Shown piece by piece: positions 9,743 through 59,933 of a stretch of DNA of 59,933 bases (its first letter is position 1; every line of letters starts with the position of its first letter). The stretch is taken from contig NZ_JAFBCZ010000018.1 in assembly GCF_016907925.1 (NCBI RefSeq), positions 64,001 to 123,933 on the forward strand. The letters run 5' to 3'. The notes beneath the pieces were generated by a model. It saw nothing but the letters and a program-made list of their open reading frames with translations. It searched no databases and had not been told where the DNA came from. Source of the DNA: Herpetosiphon giganteus (GTDB lineage: Bacteria > Chloroflexota > Chloroflexia > Chloroflexales > Herpetosiphonaceae). Made by a program: the position numbers and the translations under genes.

Positions 9743-9862
9743 ACTGCTTGATCGATAATTGGCAATGACGAAGCTCGTTTGAGTTTCGTCATTTGCGTTA
9801 ATCACGAACCTGTTGAATTAATTGTTGATAAAGCCCGTCACGTGTTTACAACAAGAGGTGAT

Positions 9863-43940: not shown

Positions 43941-44033
43941 GTTTCCTCACTCCCGCCCTCGCGCACCCGTGAGTCAAAAATCCTGTGCTCCCCTCGCCCG
44001 CTCTGTGGGAGAGGGGTTGGGGGTGAGGGAACC
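43941..44033. repeat. REP-like palindromic element (cccctcgcccgctctgtgggagagggg + ttgggggtgaggg)
   Basis: Same family as 4355-4488. Lies between hrcA and grpE. Confidence 0.6.
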
Positions 44034-44042
44034 TTATTCAAC

Positions 44043-45107
44043 CTATTCTGTTGGTTCTATTTTGCGTTCGCCGTATAAATCGCCCATCAGATCGCTCATG
44101 ACCCCAGCGATATAGCGCACGCTAGAGATTGAGCGCGGATAGGCCATGCGGCGCGGCCCCAAAACCCCGACAACTCCGGCAACATCGCCATTGACTCCGT
44201 AGCGCGAAAGAATCACACTATAATCGCGCAACTCATCGCGGCTATGCTCGCCGCCGATAATCACCTGCACGCCATCGGAGGCCAAGGCTTGGGGAATGAG
44301 CGATTCGAGCATCGTGCCGCCTTCGAGAATCGAAAGCACCTCGCGCACCCGCGTCACCTGGCCAAACTCTGGTTGATGCAGCATTTCGAGCAAGCCATCG
44401 TGATGAATTAATTCGTTGACATGCTCCTCGAATTGTTGCATTGCCCGCGCCACGCTCTCGATCACCAGCATTTCAAAACTGCTGAGCGGAGGTTGAGCCA
44501 CAGGCTGCGTCAGCGCAAGCGCCGCAATCGCCTTGGCCGAAGCTTCATGACAAAGCTCATTGATCCGGCCAGCGATTCTGCTAAGCTGCTCTTGGGTGGT
44601 GTTGGGGTCGGCGGGCAGCGTTTGTTGCTTAACCGAGCCTTCGTGCAACACCAACACCATCAACACCAAGGCATCGTTGATCGCGATCAATTCAATATGT
44701 TTAAAGCGACTTTCATAGGCGCGCGGGGGGGTAACCACGGCTGCGGTTTGGGCAGTTCGGGCCAAAACCGCTGCTGCCAAATGAATCCATTGGTTCAATT
44801 CCGAGCGGATTTGATAGAACTGATGTTGGATCATGCGCTGTTCTTGGGTGGAAAGCGCCGCCCGATCCATCAAATTTTCGACAAAGAAGCGATAGCCAGC
44901 ATCGGTGGGCAAGCGCCCAGCCGACGTATGCAAATGGGTCAAAAGGCCAGCATCTTCTAAGGCCGCCATTTCGTTGCGGACAGTCGCCGAGCTAACCCCC
45001 AAACTCCGCGCAAGATCCTGCGAGGCGACTGGAGTTGCCGTATCGATGTATTGTTGGATAACTGCCTTAAGCACCCGTCGTCGCCGCTCATTGAGTTCTA
45101 GATTCAT
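44043..45107 (-). CDS. hrcA: Heat-inducible transcription repressor HrcA
   Basis: N-terminal winged-HTH ([28 protein letters not shown]). Heads the grpE-dnaK-dnaJ operon, with a CIRCE operator upstream. Confidence 0.9.
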
Positions 45108-45121
45108 CGCTCACCTCGCTT

Positions 45122-45148
45122 TAGCACTCTTGGCCGCCGAGTGCTAAC
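45122..45148. promoter_or_regulatory. CIRCE operator (HrcA binding site) TTAGCACTC-N9-GAGTGCTAA
   Basis: Perfect match to the canonical CIRCE consensus, 15 nt upstream of the hrcA start. Confidence 0.9.
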
Positions 45149-45527
45149 TCGGTAAGTTATAAGATTGGCGTGCTCGCCGCACGCCGCTGAATATTGTAAC
45201 ACGCCGCGAAAGAGCTAGCAACGGGGCCACGCCAGCTCTTACATCGCTCTAACATTCAGCCAATTTAAACCAGTTGCGACTAAATCTCAAAAATTGGCTG
45301 AATTTCCGTTAGATCTATATCGCAAGAACTATGCACATTTTGCCCAGAATCGGCTATAATCGCCAAACGCTATTACGATATGATCATCAAGTGCTATGAG
45401 GAGGTTTCGAATGTGGGTCGGGGAGAAACTCTGCTGATTGAGGAGCAGGTAGCATCGGGGGGGTCTGGCAACTCTCCTTATAGCGTGATGCTGAATGTCA
45501 ATAGTTTTTAGTGTGTAAGGAAGGTCT

Positions 45528-48500
45528 ATGCGTTCGATGCGTATGCTGCGTTTGCTAGCAGCATTAATTGTGGTGAGCATGCTTCCATTGAGCCGAAGCA
45601 ACGCCCAAACTCCAACCACCAATGCCCCAATCAATCGCTTGCTCAACCAAGGAGCCAATGTTGCTCGCCACAGCCAAACAGGCTATGTGCGTTGGATTGG
45701 CGCGGCAGCAGGCACAACCCTCGATCAGCCAAGCGGCCTGAATCGGGCAGATACGGTTAATGTTGCCAACGCCTATGTGGCCGAATATGGTAGCTTGTTT
45801 GGCTTAGCCCAAGCCAGCGATGCAGCAATTGCAAAAACGACCACCACCCAAGATGGTCGCCAAGTTGTGCGTTATCAACAACGCTACCAAGGCGTGCCAG
45901 TAGTAGCTGGTGAATTGCAAGTGCAATTGAACCAAGCAGGCGAATTGCTCAGTATGAATGGCGAAGTGTTGCCAAATCTCAATCTGAGCACCAGCGCCAA
46001 ACTGAGCCAAGCCAACGCTAGCAGCATTGCCCAAAACTATGTTGCCGCCAAATACGATGCCAACACTGCCAACTTGAATGTGAGCAACAACGAGCTTTCA
46101 ATTTACAACCCAGCCTTGTTGGGTGGCACTGGTGTTCAAAAAAATAGCTTGGTTTGGTTAGTCACGATTGAATCAACCAGCAGCGAGCCAATTCGCGAGT
46201 ATGTGTTTGTCAATGCCCAGTCGGGCGAGATTAGCTTAGCCTTCAACCAAATTGGCTATGCCAAAAATCGCTTCGTCTGCGACGACGACAATGTGATTGA
46301 TACCGACAACACTCCCAATAATAACTGTGATGAAGCCAGCGAATATGTGCGCACCGAAGGCTCAGCCCCAAGTGGCGATGCAGATATCGATGCCGCCTAC
46401 GATTATTCGGGCGACACCTACGACTTCTACAACTTGTTCTTTGGCCGCAACAGCATCGACAACAACGGCATGAGCTTGATTTCATTGGTCAAGCATTGCC
46501 CACCTGGTGCTGGTTGCCCTTACCAAAACGCCTTCTGGAATGGTCGCCAAATGACCTATGGTGAAGGGTTTGCTGCTGCCGACGACGTGGTTGCCCACGA
46601 ATTGTCGCACGGCGTAACCGAATATACCTCAAACCTGTTCTACTACTTCCAATCAGGCGCAATCAACGAAGCCATGTCGGATATTTTCGGCGAATTCATG
46701 GATCAAACCAACGGTAGCGCCGACGATGATACAAGCACTCGTTGGATTATGGGCGAAGATTTGGGCGGATTGCGTGATATGCAAGATCCACCGCAAGGCG
46801 GCCAGCCTGATAGCATGCTCAGCCCATTGTATGTGCTTGACGCAAGCTTGGCTGACAACGGTGGCGTGCACACCAACAGCGGGATTGCCAACAAGGCTGC
46901 CTATCTGTTGACCGATGGCGACAGCTTCAACGGCCAAACGATCAACTCGATTGGCATCACCAAAACTGCCCATTTATTCTATGAAACCCAAATTAGCTCG
47001 TTGACTTCGGGCAGCGACTATGCTGATTTAGCGTCGGCTTTGCGCCAAGCGTGTAGCAGCCTAACTGGCAGCCATGGGATTACGGCAGCTGATTGTGCTG
47101 AAGTTAACAAAACCATTTTGGCCACCGAAATGGATTTGCAGCCAACCAACGCACCAGCTCCTGACATCAAGGCCTGTAGCCCTGGCCAAACTCAGGTTAA
47201 TGTTTTCGCCGATGATTTTGAAGCCTTGCCAAACACCAAATGGACTGCAAGCGCCTTGAGCGGTAGCAACGAAAGCTGGACGACCAATCCTGCTCAAATC
47301 GTTGGCGCGTATGCAACCAGCGGCAATGGTTCGGCCACCAACATCAATGGCGTGTATGGTGTGAATCAAGATGTTGAAGAATCGGCCTTCAGCCAAAATG
47401 CAGCTGTAACGGTTCCAGCCAATGGCTTTGCCTACTTCCGCCATGCCTACGATTTCTACTCACCAATCGATGCGGGCGTGGTTGAATATAGCACCAACAA
47501 CGGCAACAGCTGGCAATCGGCAGCAAACTTGTTTAGCTACAACGGGCCAAACAACATTGCTGCAGGCGGCGAATTTGCAGGCGAGCAAGCCTATGTTGGC
47601 AACAGCAATGGCTACACTGCTAGCCGCTTGAATCTCTCAAGCTTGGCTGGTCAATCAGTTCGCTTCCGCTTCAAAGTGGCGCTTGGCGACAACCCAACTC
47701 CAAGCCGCTCGGTTACCTGGTCGATTGACGATTTCGCAATCTACAGCTGTAGCGGCGCAGTAACGCCAGCAGCACCAAGCCTGTTCCTCACCAGCGATGT
47801 CTTGGCCCAACAAGGCAAGATTAGCAGTGCTGTGATTGGGACGGCCTCTGATGATATTGATTTGGCTGGTTCGTTGGCCGTGAGCGTTGCTGGCGCGCCA
47901 GCAGGCTTGAACGTCAACGTCGCCAACCAAGCAGGCATCTTGAAAGCGACGGTCAATTGTGCTTGTGACACCGAAGTTGGCAGCTACCCAATTACGGTAA
48001 CCGTCCGCGACAGCGGCAACCGCACCGCTAGCCAAGTATTCAATGTTGAAGTTGAAACCGCTGGCCAAAGCGTGATTGACGGTGGCTTTGAGCTCGGCGA
48101 GGGCTGGGAAGCCTTCTCAAGCTCGTTTGGCGACGTTTCACCGCCATTGTGTTTCTTGCCTGGCTGCGCTGGCGAGCCACGCACTGGCAATAGCTGGTTG
48201 CGCTTTGGCGCACGCGCTGGCAGCACCGAAACCGCGTTTGCAGAGCAAACCTTCACCTCAACTGCGAGCGATGCAACGCTTGAATTCTATCTCTCGATCT
48301 ATGCCCATAACGGGCGTGGCACGCAAGATTACGTCAAGCTTAGCATTGATGGCGAAGAAGTGTTCCGCGTCACCGATGCCAACACCGAATACGACAATGG
48401 CTATGCCAAAGTGACGATTCCATTGACCGACCTTGAAGCAGGCGCACATGTCTTGCGCTTCGATTCAGTCAATAATTCGACTACACGCAACATTCGCTTT

Positions 48501-48581
48501 AGCATTGATGACATCAGTTTGATTACTGAAACCAATCAATGCCGTGGCGTTGGCGTGTATCTGCCTGCCGTCACCAAATAA
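45528..48581 (+). CDS. Large secreted M4 (thermolysin-family) zinc metalloprotease with propeptide and ~500-aa C-terminal beta-sandwich/Ig-like extensions
   Basis: Signal peptide. HEXXH VVAHELSHGVTEY and the thermolysin motif GAINEAMSDIFGE. C-terminal domain ...VRFRFKV...WSIDDFAIY. Ends GVGVYLPAVTK. Confidence 0.85.
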   Translation: MRSMRMLRLLAALIVVSMLPLSRSNAQTPTTNAPINRLLNQGANVARHSQTGYVRWIGAAAGTTLDQPSGLNRADTVNVANAYVAEYGSLFGLAQASDAAIAKTTTTQDGRQVVRYQQRYQGVPVVAGELQVQLNQAGELLSMNGEVLPNLNLSTSAKLSQANASSIAQNYVAAKYDANTANLNVSNNELSIYNPALLGGTGVQKNSLVWLVTIESTSSEPIREYVFVNAQSGEISLAFNQIGYAKNRFVCDDDNVIDTDNTPNNNCDEASEYVRTEGSAPSGDADIDAAYDYSGDTYDFYNLFFGRNSIDNNGMSLISLVKHCPPGAGCPYQNAFWNGRQMTYGEGFAAADDVVAHELSHGVTEYTSNLFYYFQSGAINEAMSDIFGEFMDQTNGSADDDTSTRWIMGEDLGGLRDMQDPPQGGQPDSMLSPLYVLDASLADNGGVHTNSGIANKAAYLLTDGDSFNGQTINSIGITKTAHLFYETQISSLTSGSDYADLASALRQACSSLTGSHGITAADCAEVNKTILATEMDLQPTNAPAPDIKACSPGQTQVNVFADDFEALPNTKWTASALSGSNESWTTNPAQIVGAYATSGNGSATNINGVYGVNQDVEESAFSQNAAVTVPANGFAYFRHAYDFYSPIDAGVVEYSTNNGNSWQSAANLFSYNGPNNIAAGGEFAGEQAYVGNSNGYTASRLNLSSLAGQSVRFRFKVALGDNPTPSRSVTWSIDDFAIYSCSGAVTPAAPSLFLTSDVLAQQGKISSAVIGTASDDIDLAGSLAVSVAGAPAGLNVNVANQAGILKATVNCACDTEVGSYPITVTVRDSGNRTASQVFNVEVETAGQSVIDGGFELGEGWEAFSSSFGDVSPPLCFLPGCAGEPRTGNSWLRFGARAGSTETAFAEQTFTSTASDATLEFYLSIYAHNGRGTQDYVKLSIDGEEVFRVTDANTEYDNGYAKVTIPLTDLEAGAHVLRFDSVNNSTTRNIRFSIDDISLITETNQCRGVGVYLPAVTK

Positions 48582-48587
48582 CGGGAT

Positions 48588-48633
48588 ACCCTCACCCCAG
48601 CCCCTCGCCTACTCAACACGGGCGAGGGGAGCA
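48588..48633. repeat. REP-like palindromic element (ccctcacccc + cccctcgcc-tactcaacac-gggcgagggg)
   Basis: Same family as 4355-4488. Confidence 0.55.
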
Positions 48634-48676
48634 CTGGTCTCGTGGTTAACCTGATATACCAATACGAATAACCACA

Positions 48677-48718
48677 AAAGCGCCACCATGGCTTAGGTCA
48701 TGGTGGCGCTTTTGATTT
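48677..48718. terminator. Bidirectional rho-independent terminator (aaaagcgccaccatg-gcttaggt-catggtggcgcttttgattttt)
   Basis: Perfect 11-bp stem followed by a T-run. Sits between the convergent M4 protease gene and the 48719 gene. Confidence 0.8.
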
Positions 48719-51034
48719 TTAGCGCCCAAACGCTGTCAAGGCGCGCTGGCTCAATAGTTCAGCTGGCAGCGGAAACTGGGCAATAAGCTGCCCATAGCTG
48801 CGCTCTTGAATCAAATTGCCAGCAACCCCAACCAAAACCAGCGTTTCAGCATCGGCACTAACCACCGCATGATTGTGTAATGGCAACTCATCGCTCCATT
48901 CCAAGGCTCCAGTTGCGGCGGCATAAACCCGATATTGCTTGCTGAGCACAGGTTGTTGCAAACTGCGTTGCCACCATAAGCGCGTGCCATCAGCCGACCA
49001 ACCGACAATTGGGGTTGTAGTTACCATCGGCCCGCTTGGTTGTTGATCAAGCACGTGCCATGTTTGGCTAGCATGATCGTAACGCTGCAATTGAGCCATG
49101 CCCTGCGCCGAATCAAAGGTTACTGCGGCTAAAGCAGAGCCATCAGGAGCCAAGGCTAGGGCATGGTCTGAGCTAAGCGGCAAACTGAGCGTACTTGAGG
49201 TTTGGTTGGTTAAATTCCACCAAACCAGCTGTTGCTCGCTAGCAGTTTGGCTTTGGCGATAAACCAAGGTTTGTTGGTTTGCCATAACCAAGGTTTGCGG
49301 CTCGTAGGGCAATTCGGCCAAAATTTCAATTTCCGCTTGTTGGGTGAGCATAATTTTGGCAAAAAAAGTTTTTTTGTTGAAAGCGCTTGTTCTGGCACCA
49401 TGCAATAAGGCATACAGGGTTTGACCACTCCACGCTAGCGGCTCGATCTTTTGATAGTTATGTGGTTTGAAGGTTGTTTCAAGCGCTGTAAGCTGGTTGG
49501 TAGTGAGATCTAAAAGCAGTAACGGTTGAGCAGAATGACGTGGCAAAAGAACAATCAGTACCTGTTGCAAATCGGGATTGATTACTGTTTGGATTGTCGT
49601 ATCTAATGGGTGTTCTATAGCAGAATAATCAATTTGACGATGGGTTTGGGTTTGGGGATCGTAGAGCCATAGTGCATCAGACGAATCGTCGCGGTAAAGC
49701 GCCAAAGCAGGGAGCTTAGGCCGCTTAATTAATAACCGTATATCAAGCATTTCAATCTGTTGATCGCTCCATAGGGTGGAATAGATAGTTGTTTGGTTCA
49801 TTGTCTCCTTGGCAAACAGTGCCAAGGGATAGCGCTCGGTAGCAGGGAGTACGATTTGATTGGTTGCTAGTGATTGAGCATTCGGCAACCCTCCATCAGG
49901 TATAGTTTGCGGCACTATTAAAATGTTCCCAACCGCTTGAATAGGTTGTTGCCCAACCGCAAAACTGGTGCGTTGTTGGCTTTGGGGATGCCACAAATCA
50001 ATAAAATAATTGTCATACAAATACGCATACCAATAGCCCGATTGATAGCTTGGCACGAGCGACAAGCGTTGCTCAACAGGATAAGAATCAAGCAATTTAC
50101 CGGTTTCAAGATCATAAATGTGCCATGTATAGGGCGGTTTCTTTCTAAAGGGCAGGGATTCTTCAATAACTGCAATCTGCTTTAAATCGGGCGCAACGAT
50201 AATGTTATAAGGCTGCTCGCTTGGTGGTGGCGTAAGTTGAACTGTGCGTAATGGCGCTCCCGTAAGCCCATCCAACTCAAGCACAGCCGTTTCGTTATGC
50301 AACACAAAAAGCCGTTGCTGAACAAATGTAATAATTCCACGCTCCTCAGCCGTGGTTAACTCAGCAGTTCGTGGGTCATAGTGGCTCATTTTCTGTTCAG
50401 ATTTATAGGTGGAGCACCAAAATGTCCCGTGGAGGTTCAGTGTACACGTATATCGAGAAATATACTCAAGGTTAATATCGTGCTGCTCAAGTATTGCTCC
50501 ATCGCTTAACTGAACATGCATCCATGTCCAAAAAAAAGCTCCAAGTTTTGGTTTACTGCGCTCAATTGTCAAATATACGCCAGTTTTGGCTTCATCGAGC
50601 GCCGCAAAGACGAAATCAGTCCCATCAAAAGTATCGAATTCTATTTCCCAGCGGTATTGATTGGTTGCAAAATCAAACAGCTGAATACCATTGAAGTGAT
50701 GACTAATTGCTAGGTGTTCTTCAGCAAAGATACTGACAATTTTATCGGGGTATTTCGCGCCAACAGGGGTTAATTCGCCGCTCGCTGCAAGCCAAACATA
50801 ATTTAAATCCAAGCCAAACTCTGGCTGTTTCAATTGCACCAACACCCGCTCATTGGCTGGCATGCTCAAGGCTTGGGTGGGCGTGGCAATTGGCTGGCTT
50901 GGGCTGGCTTGGGCTGCCGACGGTAAAGTTGGCGTGGCTTGGCTAACGACAGTTGGCGTGGGCTGTTGCGCTTGGCAATTGCTCAACAACCCAACCAATA
51001 TCCCCAGCAAAAGCATTCGATACACTTTTTGCAT
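48719..51034 (-). CDS. Lipoprotein with Pro/Thr/Ser-rich linker and beta-propeller-like (PD40/PQQ-like) repeats; distant member of the downstream paralog array
   Basis: Lipobox LLSNC; RBS gggagaagg. Repeat-like segments LELDGLTGAPLRTV, YDLETGKLL, ALAPDGSALAAV and WSADGTRLWW. Confidence 0.6.
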   Translation of the reverse strand: MQKVYRMLLLGILVGLLSNCQAQQPTPTVVSQATPTLPSAAQASPSQPIATPTQALSMPANERVLVQLKQPEFGLDLNYVWLAASGELTPVGAKYPDKIVSIFAEEHLAISHHFNGIQLFDFATNQYRWEIEFDTFDGTDFVFAALDEAKTGVYLTIERSKPKLGAFFWTWMHVQLSDGAILEQHDINLEYISRYTCTLNLHGTFWCSTYKSEQKMSHYDPRTAELTTAEERGIITFVQQRLFVLHNETAVLELDGLTGAPLRTVQLTPPPSEQPYNIIVAPDLKQIAVIEESLPFRKKPPYTWHIYDLETGKLLDSYPVEQRLSLVPSYQSGYWYAYLYDNYFIDLWHPQSQQRTSFAVGQQPIQAVGNILIVPQTIPDGGLPNAQSLATNQIVLPATERYPLALFAKETMNQTTIYSTLWSDQQIEMLDIRLLIKRPKLPALALYRDDSSDALWLYDPQTQTHRQIDYSAIEHPLDTTIQTVINPDLQQVLIVLLPRHSAQPLLLLDLTTNQLTALETTFKPHNYQKIEPLAWSGQTLYALLHGARTSAFNKKTFFAKIMLTQQAEIEILAELPYEPQTLVMANQQTLVYRQSQTASEQQLVWWNLTNQTSSTLSLPLSSDHALALAPDGSALAAVTFDSAQGMAQLQRYDHASQTWHVLDQQPSGPMVTTTPIVGWSADGTRLWWQRSLQQPVLSKQYRVYAAATGALEWSDELPLHNHAVVSADAETLVLVGVAGNLIQERSYGQLIAQFPLPAELLSQRALTAFGR

Positions 51035-51055
51035 AGCCTTCTCCCTCTCTGGCTC

Positions 51056-53440
51056 CTATGGTTGCGGATAGACATACTCAACACTAAATGATCGAAATGG
51101 AGTCGTCGCATCAAAGCCATTAAATTGGATTAACGGCAACCAGTGTTGATTAATTCGCTCCAAAATATACACATCGTCGGGCATCACCACCATGACACGC
51201 TGGCCAAACCAATCACTCTTGGTTAGATTGAACCAATCAGCAAGCACCAGTGAATGGCCGATTTGGCTTGTGCGGCTCAATGTCAGCAAGCGTGAGTTAA
51301 TCGTCTGGCTTTGGGCAAGCAAATAATATTGACTATCGCCCGACCACGTACCTTGAAAGCCTATCTGCAGCGGCTGGCGCATTAACTCCAAACCAGTTGC
51401 ACTATCAAACATCAACAAGGTGCCATAGCGCCAAGGATACGTCCGCTCAAACAGCATAATCGTCTGGCCATCGGGCGCGATCTCAATTTCAAGGGCCTTG
51501 CGATCATCGGTTGCCATGAGCAATTGGGTTAGTTGGCTGACGATTGAATAGCGCTGAAGTTGATCTTGGAAATCTTGATAGACGACAATTGGCGAGCCAG
51601 CCGTATACCAAAGCTCCTTCGCCTGATCAGGATTGAGCAGATTTGTGCCTTGGCTTGGGTCATTGGCCGAGCTTTGCCAGACCAAATATTCAAACGATTG
51701 CGCCGATTCAAGCCACGTTCGACCAACAATTGTTAGTTGCTGCCCATCCCAGTAGATGGGGATTAATGTGGTTGCGGCGGGCAGTTCGGCAAAAATCCTG
51801 GGTTGGCCAGTTTGCAGATCAACCGCAAGGCAACGGTTGACTCGTGAATTGGATTGCGCATTGAAATGATAGCTATAGCACACCGCAATGCTCCGATTAT
51901 CGGGCGCACTGACTCCCGCAAAATCATCCCAACCGCCAATTTCAGCGGGATCGAGATCAAGGGTAAGGGTTGTTTGGCTGGTTGGATCAAAAATCTGCCA
52001 GCTTGCGTCTGTCCGATCAATCAGCAATGGCGCTGCATTCCAACGGGCAATACGATAAAAACTTTCTTCAGACTCCACGCGACGGCTTTCGTTAGGCCAA
52101 AGCTGGAGGGTCTGCGATTCATGCCCAACTAAAGCCAAAGGCTGAGCGGCCAATGCCACAGGCGCAAGCGGAGCATTTGCCGGAAACGGAACAGTCAAAA
52201 TTTCAAGCTGTGGGTTAGCAACCGAGGGCAGTGGCTGAAACTTGGGAATTAATCCAAACCCAAAAATTGTATGCTCAAGCTCAATCGTTTGAGTTTGGTT
52301 GGTTGGGAGATCAATCGTTTCCAAGACACCAGTGCGATTGAGCAGAATGAGGCGTTGGTCATCGAGAAAGCGAATCAACTGACTCACATCATAGCTACTG
52401 GTATGAGTTCGTTCATAGACTAATTGACGTTGCCACAAACCAAGCCCATTGCCAGCGCGATCATAGGCGAAAATTTGCTGAACTAAATTTGTGTCGAAGT
52501 TTTCGAAACGATTAACAACCGCAACCACATAGCTGAGATCGGGCGAAACCAACAGATGATCAATGCGTCCAGCACGTGGTAAATGTGAAAATTCAGTTTG
52601 GTTGAGCGTTTGACGCTTGAGCAAATCGATTTCGTTGACCATGCCTGAACCAAAGACCAAGGCCCGCTGCCCATCGGCTGCCACCGCAGCGAACTCAAGC
52701 TGGCTAAACCAGGGTTCTGCAAAGCCTTCACTGGCCGCATCAAAGCCAAACAATTGACCGTCGGCCAAAAGCCATGGACCAGCGGCGGTTGGCAAGACTT
52801 TGGGTTGTTGGCGCAACAGCGGTGCTTGATATTGGCGCAATTCTAGGCCACTGCGGCTATCCAGCCCACGCAAACGCACCGTCGCAGGCTGAAATGGGTC
52901 ATTGGTGGCTTGCTTTTCGATTAACCAAACCACATCCATAAATGGATCGTTGACCACATCCAAAATTGTGGTTTCGCGTTGATCTGTTTGGGTAAACAGT
53001 GGCAATTGCCACAAACGCCGATCATCGCGCAACGAACGGGCTTCGAGCCAGGCATAATTGCGACTCAACAGCACATTATGGTCGCGGTCAATTGTAATTA
53101 TCGGCTCTCGATCGATGAGCTTGCCTCGCGGTTGAGGCTGATTAACGCCATCCCAAAAATGCGACTCAGCCTCATCTCCCATCAACAGCAACTGTTGCTC
53201 GCCCAGATCAAGCGTTTTGCTGGCGGGCAGCGGCTGATTGGGTTGGGGCTGAGTTGCAATACTCGGGGTTGGAACTGCTGCAACCACCACCGTCGCAGTT
53301 GGCACAGGTGCTGGGGGCGCTGGCGTTTGGGCTGCCAAAATCATGGCAATTAATAAACCAATCCCAGCCATGACTGGTAGAATTTGCCAACGACGGCCTG
53401 AACCGCCAATCTTGGCGCGCTGCGAATGCTCTTCCATCAT
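51056..53440 (-). CDS. Membrane-anchored beta-propeller-repeat protein, paralog family member 2 (ends YVYPQP)
   Basis: Start set to the MMEEHSQ methionine after RBS gagagg. N-terminal RRWQILPVMAGIGLLIAMILA TM segment; P/T-rich linker; PD40-like segments (IAPDGQTIMLF). Confidence 0.6.
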   Translation of the reverse strand: MMEEHSQRAKIGGSGRRWQILPVMAGIGLLIAMILAAQTPAPPAPVPTATVVVAAVPTPSIATQPQPNQPLPASKTLDLGEQQLLLMGDEAESHFWDGVNQPQPRGKLIDREPIITIDRDHNVLLSRNYAWLEARSLRDDRRLWQLPLFTQTDQRETTILDVVNDPFMDVVWLIEKQATNDPFQPATVRLRGLDSRSGLELRQYQAPLLRQQPKVLPTAAGPWLLADGQLFGFDAASEGFAEPWFSQLEFAAVAADGQRALVFGSGMVNEIDLLKRQTLNQTEFSHLPRAGRIDHLLVSPDLSYVVAVVNRFENFDTNLVQQIFAYDRAGNGLGLWQRQLVYERTHTSSYDVSQLIRFLDDQRLILLNRTGVLETIDLPTNQTQTIELEHTIFGFGLIPKFQPLPSVANPQLEILTVPFPANAPLAPVALAAQPLALVGHESQTLQLWPNESRRVESEESFYRIARWNAAPLLIDRTDASWQIFDPTSQTTLTLDLDPAEIGGWDDFAGVSAPDNRSIAVCYSYHFNAQSNSRVNRCLAVDLQTGQPRIFAELPAATTLIPIYWDGQQLTIVGRTWLESAQSFEYLVWQSSANDPSQGTNLLNPDQAKELWYTAGSPIVVYQDFQDQLQRYSIVSQLTQLLMATDDRKALEIEIAPDGQTIMLFERTYPWRYGTLLMFDSATGLELMRQPLQIGFQGTWSGDSQYYLLAQSQTINSRLLTLSRTSQIGHSLVLADWFNLTKSDWFGQRVMVVMPDDVYILERINQHWLPLIQFNGFDATTPFRSFSVEYVYPQP

Positions 53441-53520
53441 CAATACCTCTCGTAGGGTTGCTCTCATTGGAGCATACTATCGAACCTTGCCCTAATCATA
53501 GCAAACTATGCCAAGTTGGC

Positions 53521-53862
53521 TTAGCGAGGATACACATAACGCACCCTGCTTCTAGGCGTGGCTTCGAGTTGGTGTTGCCGAAGAAGCACTAGCGCTGTGC
53601 GAGCTTGAGCACTTGGCGTGGCATGAGGAGTTGTGCTTGGAAATAGAACAATCGTGGCGGTCGGGCTGGGTTTAATCGTGGGCGAGGCAGCAAGCGCCAC
53701 GGCTGTTGGCTGGTTGGTAGGGCTAGGTTAGGCTTGATCAACAGGGCTTAAACCAAACAGCATACGCACAACTAAGCCAAGCCCAATTACTGTGCAACTC
53801 AGCAGCAAAACCCGCCAATGTCGCCCTAGATTGCGAGCCTTGGCGGCAGAACGATCATCCAT
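53521..53862 (-). pseudogene. Decayed paralog remnant: N-terminal anchor (MDDRSAAKARNLGRHWRVLLLSCTVIGLGLVV...), in-frame TAA, linker (PTAVALAASPTIKPSPTATIVLFP) joined directly to a C-terminal ...RVRYVYPR stop. The ~2.3-kb ectodomain is deleted.
   Basis: Single reading frame with an internal TAA at 53728-53730. Matches N-terminus, linker and C-terminus of the 54024 and 56948 genes (compare DRNWWRVLPVLGALGLLGLMLVL, TAVALLGSATPSIQPSPTLIAAPFP, YYVYPR). Confidence 0.6.
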
Positions 53863-54023
53863 CAGCAAACCCTCTCACTCGTGCTTGACCATGGGGAATA
53901 GTACGATCAAGCCTAGCGCACACGTCATGGGTTGCACAATGATAGCAAGCTGATGCCAAGCTGAGTCAAGGCTGGGGATCATAACCTGTCATCCGATCCC
54001 CAACCCCCGATCCCTATATCCAA

Positions 54024-56708
54024 TTAGCGTGGATACACATAATAAATCTCTTCGGAAAGGCCAATATCCTCGCTAATCCGCCAATCAATCTGTAATGCTT
54101 GGCCATCCCAGCTGAGTTGCTCAAGGCTTGGTTGCCACAAATGCTGGGCCAGCAGCGTTTTGCCATCGTTATACAAGGCTACTGGTTTTTTGAGCGGATC
54201 ACGCTTTGTACTAAATACGAGGCTTGGTTGTTGGGCGTTATAAACGCCAAGCCGTTGTTCGCGGCTAATATTCCCAAAATCCAACAACAACCAACGGCCA
54301 TCAGGCGACCATAAAAATGGGCTTTCGCTACTCTCGGAATACGCGCCTGAATCTAGTTGATACCAGCGTTGCTGCTCAAGCTGATATAAGGCCGGAGCAC
54401 TACTGCCATCAGCTGTTGGCAACATAAAAGCAAAGCTATTGCCTTCGGGCGAAAAACTCAGCGCATCGGCGGCTAATGGCATCAATGGCAGGGCAATATC
54501 GTGGCTTTGCTGCTTAACCAAATCGAGCACTCGCAACAGCATCGTTTTATTAGCAGCAGCCAGCGGGTAGATTAGCCAGCGTTGATTGGGCGCAACATAC
54601 ACCCGGGCCAGAATCGCATTGCTCACATCAGGAATGTTGGCCACAATCGCGGGAATTTCAGCGATTTTTTCTGCTTGGAATGGCGGCCCGAGCTGCACCC
54701 GCCAGAGCAGTTGAGGGTTTTTGCTGGTTTGCAGAAAATAGATGCTATCGCCTTGCCAAGCAAGCGGCTTAGCCCATTTCAATTCTGGCCAGGTGCGCGA
54801 ATCGGCGAGCACATTCCATTCGCCAGTTTGGGTATTGATTTGCAGCAGTTGACTTGCCCCAATAAATTGATCGTTGCTACGCATATCTTGGCCTACCACC
54901 ACCACCATGCTTTGATAATTTGGCGCAAGCATGCTGTCGATAAAACTTTCGTCGTTCAGAATCTTTTCAAATTCCCATTCGACAGTTTGCTGGCTCACCG
55001 GATCAAGCAATTGCCATGTTTTTGATTTGGGGTGTTGCAGCACTAAGGGCGGCTGATTATAGCGCTCAAACAGCCTAGAACCTTCCTCAACCAATACTTC
55101 AAGCGTTTGATCAGATGATAGCCGTTGCAAGCGTAAATCTAGGCCAAGTCGATCGCCAAAAATTGCCACTGGCTGAATGCTTGGGGGTTGAATCGTTGGC
55201 AAATTCGGTTGATCATACATTGGCACCATGGTTGGTAACGGCGTAACCGCCGCTTGATATTCGCTATTCGCCAGATTAATCGCCGGGCCAGCGATCTCAC
55301 CCAGCCATGCAATGCCATGATCGCCCCAAACTGAAGCTGGAACAACCTCGGTCAAGCTATTGGTTGCGACATTCCAACGGCTAACCAACTGCTGCTCACG
55401 CTCCCAATCGAAGCTCGAGATGAACCATTGATCGGCAGTTATGCCAGGGTAGATTGAGCTAAGGCTGTCAACTTCGCTGATCCCAAGCAACTGCCCAGTT
55501 TGCAGGTTGTAGACCGAGCTGAAATACCGATCGTCAACGCGTGGATCATCACTGCTGACGATGCTCTCAACCACTAAGGTTTGTTGGTTATGCGAGAACG
55601 TGGCGCTAAGCAGATTGCCTTGAAACGGCGGATTTAATGCTACTTTTTGCTCATTACCACTCGCCCAATCGATCAGGCTCAACGTGGTTGGTGCCCGAAA
55701 CACCCCCAAGAATGGTTGCGTGCCATCACCAACAATCTCATTCTTATTAAGCGCACCAACATCACGTTTTGTCATGGTCATGGGGTCAAATTGAAACAGT
55801 TTATCCTCTTCGATGCCCCAAATCTTGCCATCGCTGGTCATGATATGGCTATGGCCTGGGAGTGGTAATGAGCTGGGGCCATCAAGCAGCTGACCATCCT
55901 GAATCGCGAGATGGCTCCACGTCCAACGTGCATCATCGCTACGTTGATCAAGCACATAGACCCCGCTGCCAGCTTGATCAACTTTTAGCCTACTTTTACG
56001 ATCATACTGGTTTTTGGGCAATAATTGCATACTCCAACGCGGCTGACCCGTTTTGAGGTCAATTGCAACTAAGTTTTGGTTACGCGGCAGCAGCAAGGTT
56101 TGTTGCTCGGGCAACAGCGCCATAAAGTTTGCTGCATACTCATCGACGGTCGCAATTGGCACAAAGCCTGTAGCCTCAACGCGTACCAATTGATATTGCT
56201 CTATATCAGCACGCACAATCATTGCATAGCTATGGATTTGGTCAACAGGTGTAGGTTGAGCCGTTAACGTTGGCAGCGTTGTAGGTGTTTGAAGCCCAAG
56301 CGTTGCTGCGGGAATCGTCGTTGTTGGTTGTTGAATCGCGGGCACAATTGTTGGCAACAACTCGGCATCATTCAGATCCCTGGTTGGAACGCTGGTGAAT
56401 GCTGGCTCAATCGTCGCTAACCGAAACTCGCCTGGGTCTGCTGGCAAAACTTGGATTGGCGGCGCTGATTGCTCTGGTTGCCAGGCAGGAAACGGCGCGG
56501 CAATCAAGGTTGGGCTAGGCTGAATACTTGGCGTAGCTGAACCAAGCAAGGCCACCGCAGTGGAGTCAACATCCGCTTCATCAAGCCTACTTGGCATGAA
56601 TGTCAGCACCAGCATCAAGCCAAGTAGGCCCAACGCCCCAAGCACGGGCAGCACCCGCCACCAATTGCGATCCTTGCTCAGTTTCACCCGTTCTCGTTGT
56701 GGTTGCAT
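54024..56708 (-). CDS. Membrane-anchored beta-propeller-repeat protein, paralog 3 (TolB/PD40-like repeats; ends IYYVYPR)
   Basis: ATG for MQPQRERV follows RBS gaggag; the ORF track starts at an upstream TTG. TM segment WWRVLPVLGALGLLGLMLVL; P/T linker; motifs AIDLKTGQPRW, LSFSPEGNSF and WSPDGRWLLLD. Confidence 0.65.
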   Translation of the reverse strand: MQPQRERVKLSKDRNWWRVLPVLGALGLLGLMLVLTFMPSRLDEADVDSTAVALLGSATPSIQPSPTLIAAPFPAWQPEQSAPPIQVLPADPGEFRLATIEPAFTSVPTRDLNDAELLPTIVPAIQQPTTTIPAATLGLQTPTTLPTLTAQPTPVDQIHSYAMIVRADIEQYQLVRVEATGFVPIATVDEYAANFMALLPEQQTLLLPRNQNLVAIDLKTGQPRWSMQLLPKNQYDRKSRLKVDQAGSGVYVLDQRSDDARWTWSHLAIQDGQLLDGPSSLPLPGHSHIMTSDGKIWGIEEDKLFQFDPMTMTKRDVGALNKNEIVGDGTQPFLGVFRAPTTLSLIDWASGNEQKVALNPPFQGNLLSATFSHNQQTLVVESIVSSDDPRVDDRYFSSVYNLQTGQLLGISEVDSLSSIYPGITADQWFISSFDWEREQQLVSRWNVATNSLTEVVPASVWGDHGIAWLGEIAGPAINLANSEYQAAVTPLPTMVPMYDQPNLPTIQPPSIQPVAIFGDRLGLDLRLQRLSSDQTLEVLVEEGSRLFERYNQPPLVLQHPKSKTWQLLDPVSQQTVEWEFEKILNDESFIDSMLAPNYQSMVVVVGQDMRSNDQFIGASQLLQINTQTGEWNVLADSRTWPELKWAKPLAWQGDSIYFLQTSKNPQLLWRVQLGPPFQAEKIAEIPAIVANIPDVSNAILARVYVAPNQRWLIYPLAAANKTMLLRVLDLVKQQSHDIALPLMPLAADALSFSPEGNSFAFMLPTADGSSAPALYQLEQQRWYQLDSGAYSESSESPFLWSPDGRWLLLDFGNISREQRLGVYNAQQPSLVFSTKRDPLKKPVALYNDGKTLLAQHLWQPSLEQLSWDGQALQIDWRISEDIGLSEEIYYVYPR

Positions 56709-56947
56709 CGATATTGCTCCTCTATTCAATCATGAGTGGCTATCGGCACTAGGCTATAGGCTATTGGCTATGGGCTATTGGCGTTGGGAACCGCGAAGCG
56801 CACGAAGGACGCGAAGGTTCGTTTTTAGCCACAAATTGCCCGAAGCATAGAGTGTCGCCACAGCTTCATACTCCCAATAGCCTTCAGCCTAGAGCCGATA
56901 GCCTAACTCCTCCCCCCTGATCCCCGATCCCCGATCCCTACGTACAA

Positions 56948-59611
56948 TCAACGCGGATACAGATAGCGAATCGTCTCAAGCCTTATTTCCATTGGGGCCA
57001 TACGCCACTCAGTTTGCCATTCTTGCTCGCGCCATGTCAACTGGGTAAATGCCGGATTCCAAGATTGGCCAGTTAGAAGCGTTTTGCCATCGTTATCCAA
57101 GGCTAGTAATCGATGCTCGGTCGGCTCAATTTGCGAACGCAAAGCGAGGCTTGGTTGCTGCGTATTATAGATGCTCAGGCGGCGGTTAAGCCCAACATAG
57201 CCAAAATCGACCGCCAGCCACTTGCCATCAGGCGACCACAAAAACTGGTCTTGGCTATTGGCATAAAAGCCTGCATCAAGCTGATACCAACGTTGCTGCG
57301 CAAATTCATACAAGCCAACATAGTGATCATGTTTGGGGTTCAAGCTTGGCAGGATTAACCCAAAACGCTCGCCATCGGGCGCAAAGCTCAAGCTCACCAG
57401 ATCGATCAATGGCAGCGTCAATTCATGGCTTTGTTGCTCGACCAAATCGAGCACCTTCACCAACATAGTTTCCTTATTCGCCGTCGCCAGCGGATAGAGT
57501 AACCAGCGTTGGTTGGGTGAAATAACGATTCTGGCAAAGATTGGATAACTTGAAACTGCTGGATCACTGGTAACAACGCTGGGAATTTCAGCCAGTTTTG
57601 TGGCTTGGAACGGTGGGCCTACTTGCACGCGCCAAAGCACCTGCGGGTTCGGCCCAGCTTGCAGAAAATAAGCGCTATCGCCGTGTAATGCAATTGGTTT
57701 AGCCCATTGCAGCTCAGGCCATGTCCATGAATCAGCGAGAATATTCCATGTGCCAGTTTGCAGATTAATCTGAACTAACTGACTTGAGCCGGTAAATTGA
57801 TCGCTGCGCTGTAAATCTTGGCCCACAATCACCAGCAAGCTGCGATAATCGGGTGCTAGCAAGGGGTCAAAATCCAATTCGCTAGTACTAAGAATTTTTT
57901 CAAATTGCCATTCCACAGTTTGTTGGGTGTTTAGGTCGAGCATTTGCCACTGGCGTGCTTGGGGGCGTTGCAGCACTAATGGAGTTTGGTTATAGCGTGG
58001 AAACGTGTGCACCACAAAATCAGCAAGCAACTCCGTGTGCAAGTCGCTATCGATCCGCTGTATGCCACCGTTAGCAGCAACCAAGGCCACGGGCTTGGTC
58101 GTAGCAGGCAAGATCGTTGGCAATGGTGTTTGTTCATAGATCGAAACAGGGCTAGGCAAGGGCGTAACTGCTGCTTGAAATTCACTTGCAAGCGGTTCAA
58201 TTGGCGCACCGCTAACCTCGCCAAGCCATAGAATGCCATTATCGCCAATGATCGTTGGCACAACTACTTGGGTCAACGTATTGGTTGCCATGTTCCAAAG
58301 GCTAAGATCGCGCTTGGAACTCACATAATCAGGCATGATTACTAACCATTGATCGGCACTATTGGTTGGATAGAGGCTGCTAAACATATCATGCTTGATC
58401 GTGGCAATTAATCGGCCAGTTTGGAGATCATAGGCTAAATAGTCATCATTTGCGCTGAAGGAACTGGTAGGCGGAGCCGCACTATCAACAACCAAGATCG
58501 TTTGATCGTTGGATAAAAAGCCTGCTCTAGGCATCCACTCAAATGGGCTTGCGTCTAATTCAACTGAACGCTCGTCGCCAGTTGCCCAATTGATCAGGCT
58601 CAATGTTGTTGGGCTACGAAATACGCCCAACAACGGTTGGCGGCCATCGCCCAAAATTGTCGCGTTGGAGAGTGAACCAAATTCTTGGTAGGCTTGGGTT
58701 GCAGGGTCATAGTGAAACAGGGTTTCCGGCGTGGAAAACCAAATGTGGCCAGTGCTCGTGAGCAACAGTTGATCAACTGCTGGCAATTTAAAATGTTGGG
58801 CTGGTTGCTGCAAAATTCCATCATTCAACCCAAGGTGACTTAAACGCCAGGTCATCGTTGCTTGATTAATTTCAATCAGATAGACCCCAGTGCCAGCCTG
58901 ATCAAGCGTCAAGTGACTTGTATAATCAAGCGCCGTTTTGGGCAACAAACCATAGCGCCATAGTTCGCGACTAGTCGCCAAATCAAGCGCAACCAATTGC
59001 TGATTGCGCGGAATCAAGACACGTTGTTGCGCAGGCAACAAGGTCATAAAGCGCTCAGCATAGGCATCAACGGCAGCAATCGAAACCAAATTATTGGAGT
59101 CGATTCGCACGAGGTTATGGCCCGCAGGGCTATGCACAATCGCATAGCGCTGGCTTTGGGTAGCTGGCGTTGGGCGCGCAGTTGGCGCTGGCAGCGGCGT
59201 AACGGTTGAGGCTGGTAGATTGGTTGGTGCTGGCTCAATCACCGGCACAATCGTGGGTAAGGGCATCGGATCGCCTGGCAATTTAGGAGGAACGGTTGTC
59301 AGCACAAGTTCTGGTTGCACCGTCACCACGCGAATCTCGCCCAGTTTATCGGGCAGCAGCCGAATTGGCGGTGGCTCCGCTGGTCGGGTAGGAAATGGCG
59401 CGGCAATCAAGGTTGGGCTAGGCTGAATACTTGGCGTAGCTGAACCAAGCAAGGCCACCGCAGTGGGGTCAACATCCGCTTCATCAAGCCTACTTGGGAT
59501 GAATGTCAGCACCAGCATCAAGCCAAGTAGGCCCAACGCCCCAAGCACGGGCAACACCCGCCACCAATTACGATCGTTGCCAAGTTTGACTCGCTCCCGT
59601 TGTGGTTGCAT
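56948..59611 (-). CDS. Membrane-anchored beta-propeller-repeat protein, paralog 4 (ends IRYLYPR). The first 81 residues and the leader are nearly identical to paralog 3.
   Basis: Same architecture: ALDLATSRELW, LSFAPDGERFG and WSPDGKWLAVD. The 5' ~250 nt of the CDS and ~120 nt upstream are nearly identical to 56460-56850. Confidence 0.65.
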   Translation of the reverse strand: MQPQRERVKLGNDRNWWRVLPVLGALGLLGLMLVLTFIPSRLDEADVDPTAVALLGSATPSIQPSPTLIAAPFPTRPAEPPPIRLLPDKLGEIRVVTVQPELVLTTVPPKLPGDPMPLPTIVPVIEPAPTNLPASTVTPLPAPTARPTPATQSQRYAIVHSPAGHNLVRIDSNNLVSIAAVDAYAERFMTLLPAQQRVLIPRNQQLVALDLATSRELWRYGLLPKTALDYTSHLTLDQAGTGVYLIEINQATMTWRLSHLGLNDGILQQPAQHFKLPAVDQLLLTSTGHIWFSTPETLFHYDPATQAYQEFGSLSNATILGDGRQPLLGVFRSPTTLSLINWATGDERSVELDASPFEWMPRAGFLSNDQTILVVDSAAPPTSSFSANDDYLAYDLQTGRLIATIKHDMFSSLYPTNSADQWLVIMPDYVSSKRDLSLWNMATNTLTQVVVPTIIGDNGILWLGEVSGAPIEPLASEFQAAVTPLPSPVSIYEQTPLPTILPATTKPVALVAANGGIQRIDSDLHTELLADFVVHTFPRYNQTPLVLQRPQARQWQMLDLNTQQTVEWQFEKILSTSELDFDPLLAPDYRSLLVIVGQDLQRSDQFTGSSQLVQINLQTGTWNILADSWTWPELQWAKPIALHGDSAYFLQAGPNPQVLWRVQVGPPFQATKLAEIPSVVTSDPAVSSYPIFARIVISPNQRWLLYPLATANKETMLVKVLDLVEQQSHELTLPLIDLVSLSFAPDGERFGLILPSLNPKHDHYVGLYEFAQQRWYQLDAGFYANSQDQFLWSPDGKWLAVDFGYVGLNRRLSIYNTQQPSLALRSQIEPTEHRLLALDNDGKTLLTGQSWNPAFTQLTWREQEWQTEWRMAPMEIRLETIRYLYPR

Positions 59612-59632
59612 CGATATTGCTCCTCTATTCAA

Positions 59633-59760
59633 TCATGAGTGGCTATCGGCACTAGGCTATTGGATGTTGGCTATTGGCTTTTGGCGTTGGGAACCGCGAA
59701 GCGCACGAAGGACGCGAAGATCACGAGGGCTTTGGACTTCTGACTTCTGACTTTTGATGT
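59633..59760. repeat. Conserved leader/repeat block upstream of paralog 4 (tggctatcggcactaggctattgg..., cgcgaagcgcacgaaggacgcgaag, ctgacttctgacttttgat)
   Basis: Nearly identical block at 56730-56830 upstream of paralog 3. Contains TTCGTG/CACGAA and ctttt-gac modules. Confidence 0.6.
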
Positions 59761-59802
59761 TCTATGCTCTCTGTATACTGATTCATTGCGTTAACAACGA
59801 TT

Positions 59803-59853
59803 CACCCCTCACCCCCTAGCCCACTCACCCGCCCACGGGTTTAAGGGCGGACA
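59803..59853. repeat. REP-like element (cacccctcaccccctagcc...cccgcccacgggtttaagggcgg)
   Basis: Same CCTCACCCC family with a GC hairpin. Confidence 0.45.
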
Positions 59854-59933
59854 GGGACGCTCAACCAGGGGATACAGCACGACCTCGGTTTGGTATACTG
59901 GATGGTGACGAAACCAAACCCAGAGCAAAACCG

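Follow-up and report, generated by a model that had tools for sequence, protein, structure and literature searches.

A very probable pseudogene remnant of a C-type array member in Herpetosiphon giganteus

A broken frame between two full-length paralogs

The stretch of Herpetosiphon giganteus DNA analysed here (59,933 nucleotides, referred to as the window) contains an array of full-length paralogs on the minus strand, comprising p1 (48719-51034), the D-type p2 (51056-53440), the B-type p3 (54024-56708, with its stop codon at 54026-54024) and p4 (56948-59611). Between the minus-strand ORFs of p2 (51056-53467) and p3 (54024-56729) lies a gap of 556 bases (53468-54023), and the question raised by this locus is whether the gap holds a small gene in its own right or what is left of a larger one. 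A sequence-only reading had proposed the latter, namely a relic of a fifth array member with anchor, linker and C-terminus kept, the ectodomain lost and the frame interrupted by a stop. The HrcA, M4 peptidase, p1, p2, p3 and p4 proteins of the window are exact matches to the database entries MBM7844793-MBM7844796, MBM7844798 and MBM7844799; an 803-aa version of p2 has no exact match in the database because the annotators place its start later, the NCBI start giving a protein of 794 aa.

The gap is occupied by a single frame on the minus strand (53862-53521), the translation of which reads MDDRSAAKARNLGRHWRVLLLSCTVIGLGLVVRMLFGLSPVDQA, a stop, PSPTNQPTAVALAASPTIKPSPTATIVLFPSTTP...RSRVRYVYPR and a second stop, exactly as the sequence-only reading had transcribed it, and the gap has no further noteworthy ORF. 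The first 44 codons (53731-53862) encode a short cytoplasmic tail and a transmembrane anchor. They are followed by a premature TAA (53730-53728), after which 68 more codons rich in Pro, Thr, Ser and Ala lead to the terminal RSRVRYVYPR and the final stop at 53523-53521. Within this second part, codons 46-91 (53591-53727) represent the remnant of a Pro/Thr-rich linker, similar to the linker TAVALLGSATPSIQPSPT of p3 and p4, while the C-terminal tail remnant (53521-53572), ...QLEATPRSRVRYVYPR with its TAA, is in frame with the 5' part. The 18 nt between them, AGTGCTTCTTCGGCAACA (53573-53590), form a junction zone that permits no confident assignment. The relic lies between a B-type and a D-type gene, behind the conserved leader of C-type genes, and presents the N-terminal MDDRS... 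tail, transmembrane helix and Pro/Thr linker of the C type as well as the C-terminal Y-V/L-Y-P-R/Q motif directly before the stop (RYVYPR at 53538-53521). What it lacks of a C-type gene are the two β-propeller ectodomains (about 740 residues), nothing being found between codon 91 and the tail, and an unbroken reading frame, the TAA standing at codon 45. The leader, the ribosome-binding site, the anchor, a stub of the linker and the last ~16-23 codons are thus what is retained.

Comparison with the paralogs in the window places the relic in the same family. Read through its stop, it is collinear with the p3 and p4 N-termini (residue 16 to residue 17). The alignments score 87 and 94, whereas shuffled sequences average 38-39 (sd 5-6) and none of 300 reaches the observed values. 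For the N-terminal 35 residues the best match is p2 (again 0/300 shuffles). The pattern Y[VLI]YP[RQ] occurs at only four sites in the six-frame translation of the 59.9-kb window, namely where p2, p3, p4 and the relic end, each 0-1 residue ahead of a stop; the corresponding residues Y890, Y892, P893 and R894 are nearly invariant in an alignment of 19 family sequences. The similarity to the 5' and 3' ends of the paralogs that had been claimed for the relic is therefore confirmed at the protein level and, among nucleotides, for the terminal 19 nt alone (18/19, E=0.027), but BLAST within the window gives no 5' nucleotide match between the relic region and the paralogs. This weakness of the nucleotide similarity arises because the subtype of the relic is only ~35% identical to p3, and for this reason protein-level tests and orthologous loci were used, the latter supplying the nucleotide evidence that decides the matter.

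An RBS-like GAGAGGG (53876-53870) is located 7 nt ahead of the ATG of the relic, within the C-type gene's leader or promoter-proximal region (53863-53966, minus strand). The ~105 nt upstream of the ATG are almost invariant in five Herpetosiphon genomes, including H. llansteffanensis in which the adjacent coding sequence is only ~79% identical, and we attribute this conservation to a role of the leader ahead of the functional C genes of other species. The only two derived changes in the conserved core of the leader belong to the window (53922 and 53921). The motif TTGCTATSATTRKG is found in the whole window only in this leader and upstream of p2, whose own leader (53441-53520, minus strand, outside the relic) is, in the leader alignment, a shortened paralog of the C-type one; window positions 53511-53305 align to the locus of Herpetosiphon sp. 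NSE202 (L003 9930-10136) with 92.8% identity. A consensus scan gave no sigma-70 promoter-like site in the region and, as terminator candidates, only weak hairpins no better than expected by chance, an Rfam search of window 48000-59933 returned nothing at E<=1, and a metagenome scan with the conserved leader pattern produced 0 matches. A sigma-54 promoter at TTGGCAT-N4-TTGCT upstream of the relic and p2 was considered and rejected, as the GG-to-GC spacing is N9 and N8 instead of N10, and H. llansteffanensis has not kept the GG and TTGC bases.

The other end of the gap belongs to p3. Directly after the p3 stop, and outside the relic, a flank on the minus strand (53974-54014) carries GGGATC/GGGGATC repeats and a GGGGATC...GATCCCC inverted repeat. 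The sequence-only reading had described a resemblance between the 3' flank of the relic and that of p3. The resemblance of the 'gatcccc' flanks is real (20/22 nt, window 54016-53995, which extends 2 nt past the flank as delimited above, versus 56940-56919 by BLAST), but it had been assigned to the wrong gene, as one copy lies just downstream of the p3 stop and the other directly after the stop of p4. The two copies are therefore uninformative about the relic and reflect the duplication of p3 and p4.

Intact and half-length C genes at orthologous loci

A scan of species-representative genomes with p2 led to two syntenic loci, one in H. llansteffanensis CA052B (L002) and one in Herpetosiphon sp. 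NSE202 (L003). At the position of the relic, H. llansteffanensis has an uninterrupted gene encoding 888 aa (L002:7255-9921), which begins MDDRSPHAKSGNVGRW...VDQAQPSPSTQLTAVALATSTKIKPSATAIIVLFPSTTP and ends ...ARHGIRYVYPR before its stop. The gene stands between the B and D orthologs, with the same leader ahead and the p2 ortholog behind, in a locus that adjoins the same M4 peptidase and HrcA genes as the window, and it is also intact in a second strain of the species (P0001, locus tag ACP8Y2_01655, 92% identical). Both arms of the relic can be aligned directly to it, the left arm at 79% identity (window 53966-53593 versus L002 7151-7524, a 379 nt alignment) and the right arm at 85% (window 53541-53312 versus L002 9901-10129), while tblastn with the 888-aa protein against the window recovers residues 1-93 at 60% identity. 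About 2.32 kb of the H. llansteffanensis gene is absent from the window, where about the first 91 and the last ~16-23 codons survive. The relic shares with this protein its place in the array, its leader and its MDDRS...VDQAQPSP..TAVALA.. start, but the H. llansteffanensis gene is intact, has two propeller domains and reads CAG where the window has TAA. The proposal of a former fifth array member is borne out by the presence of this gene at the identical position in a related species, and the earlier estimate of about 2.3 kb for the missing sequence agrees with it.

The closest relative of the relic is found in NSE202, with 93.8% identity over 611 nt (window 54200-53591 versus L003 3290-3893). 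The alignment breaks off exactly at 53591, where the deletion's left arm ends; the right arm is formed by the tail remnant, so that the breakpoint lies between 53591 and 53573. At the protein level 83 of the 92 codons match (9 amino-acid differences), and codons 1-44 of the relic are orthologous to residues 1-44 of the NSE202 gene as they are to those of the intact one. The NSE202 C gene (L003:3622-5136), which encodes 504 aa from its ATG and is listed as 506 aa from an upstream TTG, is itself shortened. Its protein aligns to residues 1-500 of the 888-aa protein with 74% identity, and beyond that point the gene continues, in another frame, with the last ~30 codons (ELTDADWELAWRIQLEATPRSRVRYVYPR, followed by the stop). 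The identical deletion junction is present in a Logan contig of SRR26329190 (L004; P0002) and in H. geysericola (L005, 483 aa), and corresponds to the frameshifting loss of ~1.07 kb (L002 ~8758-9828). The equivalent stretch of p3 is the second propeller in its AlphaFold model (residues 513-891), and on the assumption that the 888-aa C protein is laid out like p3, the older deletion would thus have excised its second propeller almost exactly. The 520-aa 'F' gene of SRR26329190 and H. geysericola was examined as the missing second half of the C gene and discarded, its best matches being of A/B type (38-40%) and not of C type.

With dN/dS values of 0.2-0.3, against 0.17-0.24 for intact paralogs, the truncated C genes of these relatives appear to be still functional as single-propeller genes. 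They are the closest kin of the relic and like it have lost the second propeller, but they keep the first propeller under purifying selection, whereas the relic is without it and carries a nonsense codon. In the five-genome alignment the TAA of the relic is aligned with CAA in NSE202 and SRR26329190 and with CAG in H. llansteffanensis, the codon being that of a Gln in the VDQAQPSP of the relatives, and outgroup polarization identifies the C-to-T change as derived in the window and lineage-specific. The region therefore combines homology to a functional gene with derived lesions, a nonsense codon and a deletion, that are specific to the window, as is characteristic of a pseudogene.

The substitution pattern may reflect relaxed selection on the remaining codons, although few changes are available. 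The left arm of the relic has a dN/dS of 0.95 relative to NSE202 (4.5 synonymous and 11.5 non-synonymous changes), a value of little power given the 16 differences behind it; the first 92 codons of C genes evolve fast even where the gene has been kept (dN/dS 0.83 for NSE202 versus SRR26329190). For codons 1-44 alone the comparison with NSE202 gives an omega of 1.03, from only 10 differences in a fast-evolving segment. Polarized counts assign 4 derived changes to the window and 4 to NSE202, numbers that have no power to reveal a faster decay. These counts would fit a relic that is inert and of fairly recent origin.

Deletion history and alternative readings

We consider it very probable that the segment 53521-53966 (minus strand) is the non-functional remnant, in H. 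giganteus, of a C-type member of the array. Homology, synteny, the breakpoints and the derived stop are directly observed, and the loss of function is inferred, as are the number and order of the deletions. The ancestral C gene would have had ~888 codons and stood between the B-type (p3) and D-type (p2) genes. The second propeller would most likely have gone first, through a frameshifting deletion of ~1.07 kb in an ancestor shared by H. giganteus, NSE202 and H. geysericola, and the resulting single-propeller gene of ~500 aa would have stayed under purifying selection in the other lineages. In the H. giganteus lineage a further ~1.26 kb may then have been lost by illegitimate recombination with no more than 3 nt of microhomology, so that the first propeller disappeared together with the old junction, and a CAA-to-TAA mutation would have arisen at codon 45. 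That the two coding pieces stand in the same frame would be due to chance (1 in 3).

The stepwise character of this loss, an older deletion of ~1.07 kb followed by one of ~1.26 kb specific to H. giganteus, is in our view probable. The identities between B genes amount to 94.3% for the window and NSE202, 96.8% for L004 and L005, about 90% between these pairs and ~84.5% for H. llansteffanensis. The C remnant gives the same topology, with 16 differences between the window and NSE202 and 41-49 to SRR26329190. Distances of both genes therefore make the window the sister of NSE202 within the clade that carries the shared junction, from which it follows by parsimony that the ancestor of H. giganteus already had the ~500-aa form. 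The second deletion would span L003 3894 to about 5153, the old junction included. The relic tail (53572-53521) is identical at 48 of 52 positions to L003 5174-5225, at 42 of 52 to L004 and L005, and at 36 of 52 to the 3' end of the intact H. llansteffanensis gene. In the junction zone only ~8 of the 18 nt match the in-register NSE202 tail in a hand count on the alignment, and microhomology at the breakpoint amounts to at most GCT (3 nt). The idea that these 18 nt were copied as filler from within the C gene was rejected, since the match is not significant (42/200 and 77/200 shuffles reach it).

A single deletion of ~2.3 kb from a full-length allele is what the sequence-only reading had proposed, and the arrangement of the window has points in its favour: the tail is joined directly to the leader of the D gene as in H. 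llansteffanensis, the F and D' genes that accompany the truncated C gene in NSE202, H. geysericola and SRR26329190 are absent, and the locus is a mosaic (p2 body dS 0.58 relative to NSE202, p3 0.17) in which alleles may have been exchanged. The two-step order in its turn presupposes that the additional gene or genes found between the C tail and D in those three relatives have disappeared from the window. However, the C remnant of the window is sister to the NSE202 allele, and the NSE202 junction is common to the more distant H. geysericola and SRR26329190, so that a single event would need the old junction to have been spread by recombination after the window and NSE202 had separated. We regard the single event as rather unlikely. 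The 'precise internal deletion' of the sequence-only reading therefore stands as regards the ~2.3 kb lost, but probably conceals two nested deletions instead of one.

Readings that deny a decayed gene altogether fare less well. The short region could be an artefact, either a collapse that joined the 5' end of an intact gene to its 3' end or a TAA produced by a sequencing error, and the array is indeed repetitive; a tract of ~330 nt with ~96% identity is shared by p3 and p4, and it is at this tract that a Logan contig (SRR18701128) breaks off, at window 56523. Yet the same contig, the product of a different assembler, is 100% identical to the window over 44000-56523, 12.5 kb that span the relic and include the same base at the TAA, although it may derive from the reference's own read set. 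The breakpoints share at most 3 nt and thus leave an assembler no repeat over which to collapse the sequence, and the closest relatives are already without half of the C gene. An assembly collapse at the relic is unlikely, and an artefact of either kind is highly improbable. The 44-codon ORF (53862-53731) might on the other hand be a genuine gene for a small membrane protein, for example an anchor-only peptide that modulates the full-length paralogs. Its ATG, its RBS-like GAGAGGG and its highly conserved leader are intact, so that such a peptide, with a plausible transmembrane helix, could still be made, and gene callers predict it in two assemblies, the reference and the Logan contig of SRR18701128; GenBank and RefSeq list it as a hypothetical protein (MBM7844797.1 / WP_275580626.1). 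However, the product forms a cluster with a single member among ~15 billion proteins, and the ORF is not conserved as such, the same codons being the 5' end of a gene of at least 483 aa in every relative. Its stop is a derived nonsense mutation of a codon that specifies Gln in all of these, its substitutions fit neutrality within the small number of differences given above, and the conservation of the leader is explained by the C genes elsewhere, the only two derived changes in the leader core being those of the window. We judge a genuine small gene to be very improbable.

The sequence-only reading had also allowed for a decoy or short regulatory product should the TAA be read through or recoded, which would give a protein of ~113 aa with the anchor and the C-terminal tag. 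The 5' and 3' pieces do share a frame, and reading through one stop would reach the native YVYPR. Against this, the shared frame is a 1-in-3 chance under the two-step history, the tail being out of frame in an NSE202-like ancestor; the stop, which is CAA or CAG in relatives, is not conserved and hence no established recoding site, and the Rfam search detected no RNA family or structure signal. TAA is an efficient bacterial terminator, and a read-through product without a propeller would have nothing to display. With the singleton status of the 44-aa product and substitutions that, few as they are, look neutral, this proposal finds no support, and read-through or recoding is extremely improbable. 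The broader possibility that the stump yields a 44-residue anchor-only micro-protein, or rarely the ~113-residue read-through form, as a dominant-negative regulator born from decay has in our estimate very little probability; were it true, such a peptide could stand in competition with the full-length paralogs, either for a membrane partner or for a sorting step that recognizes the anchor or the C-terminal motif. A pseudogene remnant of a C-type gene is thus the reading we retain.

Array turnover in Herpetosiphon

The proteins of the array are predicted to consist of a short cytoplasmic tail, one transmembrane helix, a disordered Pro/Thr linker, two β-propellers and the YVYPR end. In the AlphaFold model of p3 (mean pLDDT 74) a transmembrane helix (residues 16-36) and a linker that is disordered to about residue 150 are followed by two all-β propeller-like domains (158-475 and 513-891). 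A Foldseek search with this model retrieved tandem-propeller chains at E values of ~1e-13 to 1e-16 with TM-scores of only ~0.2, and p3 resembles tandem double β-propeller proteins such as the Utp21-type tandem WD40, the Apaf-1 propellers and tricorn protease at the level of the fold only. The family does not belong to these at the sequence level, has no catalytic domain and is confined to a few Herpetosiphon-type genomes, and the relic keeps none of the fold. Pfam assigns no family at gathering score to the paralogs, the relic or four database relatives, the only signals being sub-threshold ones to PQQ_2, PD40 and Tricorn_2nd/β-propeller families. Of 1.84 billion representatives searched exhaustively by HMMER with the intact C protein as query, only 25 reach E<=1e-3 and only 6 reach E<=1e-30, the named matches being all from Herpetosiphon or Chloroflexi MAGs. 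A word-index protein search with the same query returned two clusters only, its candidates having probably been flooded by words from the low-complexity linker.

Eight loci were compared, seven complete Herpetosiphon-type arrays and one partial scaffold, and all differ in content. H. giganteus has A, B, the C relic, D and E, where H. llansteffanensis has A, B', B, C, D and E and NSE202 has A, B, a half-length C, D', D'', D and E. SRR26329190 and H. geysericola present B (with an additional B' in H. geysericola), a half-length C, a 520-aa chimera made of a D-type anchor and a second-propeller-type domain, D and a remnant of E. Of two MAG loci, one (L006) has A, B, a split D and E and no C, and the other (L007) B and D only. 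The partial metagenome scaffold (L010) carries a full-length but frameshifted C followed by the chimera. The 'ongoing birth and death' that the sequence-only reading had seen in the array is thus supported by seven mapped arrays that all differ, with the partial eighth as a further variant.

Within this setting the relic is a new and unusually well-resolved example of a known object, the pseudogene remnant. It resembles other bacterial pseudogene remnants in tandem paralog arrays in having functional homologous neighbours, a deletion combined with a nonsense codon, restriction to one lineage and a background of variable copy number; slightly uncommon among these is the survival of both native ends and the leader, with the pieces in frame. 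It represents ordinary gene decay, its value being mainly curatorial and evolutionary and mechanistically nothing new. On the curatorial side the label of MBM7844797.1 / WP_275580626.1 as a hypothetical protein should give way to that of a pseudogene 5' fragment. On the evolutionary side the locus provides a clean, dated series of domain-by-domain decay, from a two-propeller gene through a selected single-propeller gene to an anchor-only stump, within a surface-protein family that is very small, restricted to the genus and different in copy number and chimeric make-up in each Herpetosiphon genome examined. This turnover hints that the array, in a predatory bacterium, is a cell-surface locus that is exposed and evolves rapidly.

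Setting of the array and its lipoprotein-like member

Comparison of the flank at 44043-48581 of the window with the matching parts of L002-L006 (loci from H. llansteffanensis CA052B, Herpetosiphon sp. NSE202, an SRR26329190 Logan contig, H. geysericola and a MAG respectively) showed that one side of the propeller array is bordered in most genomes by a conserved, divergently oriented M4 (thermolysin-type) metallopeptidase of 1017 aa, which carries FTP and PepSY-type propeptide domains, and then by hrcA. A PIG-L deacetylase lies on the opposite side, and in the MAG locus L007 a two-gene array is found without an adjoining M4 peptidase. The minus-strand paralog p1 (48719-51034) starts with MQKVYRMLLLGILVGLLSNC, which on inspection resembles the signal peptide of a lipoprotein, lipobox cysteine included, unlike the uncleaved transmembrane anchor of the other paralogs. 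The YVYPR terminus is likewise absent from p1, which ends in ...TAFGR.

Leaders and upstream repeats

The leaders of the C-type genes are paralogous to those of the D-type genes, and both TTGCTATSATTRKG and GAT(A/C)GTA(G/C)TAT are present in them (minus strand, 53491-53504 and 53935-53948, with counterparts in the leaders of L002-L006). The C-type leader is better conserved than the coding sequence beside it, and in the MAG locus L006, where a C gene is absent, the D gene has a leader of the long, C-type form. Neither the C- nor the D-type leaders matched a known promoter or RNA family. Upstream of p3 and p4, 30-75 nt 5' of their ATGs, are tandem heptamer arrays of about six copies (56738-56782 and 59640-59685) reading GGCTATN on the plus strand and NATAGCC on the gene strand; these could serve as an array of binding sites for a protein or be a tract prone to slippage.

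The C-type stump and shortened C genes in relatives

The 44-aa stump of the C-type remnant (53731-53862, minus strand) is entered in GenBank/RefSeq as a 'hypothetical protein' (MBM7844797.1 / WP_275580626.1), for which the correct annotation should be part of a pseudogene. Half-length C genes occur in NSE202 (L003:3622-5136), SRR26329190 (L004:3014-4534) and H. geysericola (L005:15700-17151), where one common frameshifting deletion has removed the second propeller; that of H. geysericola has an additional nonsense codon approximately 20 codons earlier. Since dN/dS in these shortened genes is still 0.2-0.3, a single-propeller anchored protein seems to be maintained in these relatives.

Possible sequence exchange within the array

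Overall identity between p3 and p4 is only ~52%, yet the two share a tract of ~330 nt with ~96% identity (56818-56487 and 59721-59390, minus strand), extending from ~110 nt upstream through the start codon, anchor and linker as far as approximately codon 80, which looks like the product of recent gene conversion. The Logan contig from the independent assembly SRR18701128 ends at 56523, within the p3 copy of the tract, as would be expected if the p3/p4 repeat breaks the assembly. The body of p2 (51056-53440) shows only 70-73% aa identity to its orthologs (L003:10004-12406 and L002:10004-12394), with a dS of 0.58 and a dN of 0.20 against NSE202, while the neighbouring p3 is far less diverged (94% aa, dS 0.17). 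Despite this, the p2 leader and first codons remain ~93% identical to NSE202, a pattern suggestive of either mosaic recombination in the array or diversifying turnover there. Chimeric family members are also found: a 520-aa gene (L004:4652-6214, L005:17339-18901 and, in the partial metagenome scaffold L010, 2541-4058) joins a D-type anchor (MEEHSQ...) to a second-propeller-type domain, and an NSE202 gene (L003:7594-9924) combines an E-type lipoprotein signal with a D-type body and the terminus IYPQP. Taken together, these chimeras suggest that modules have been shuffled within the array.
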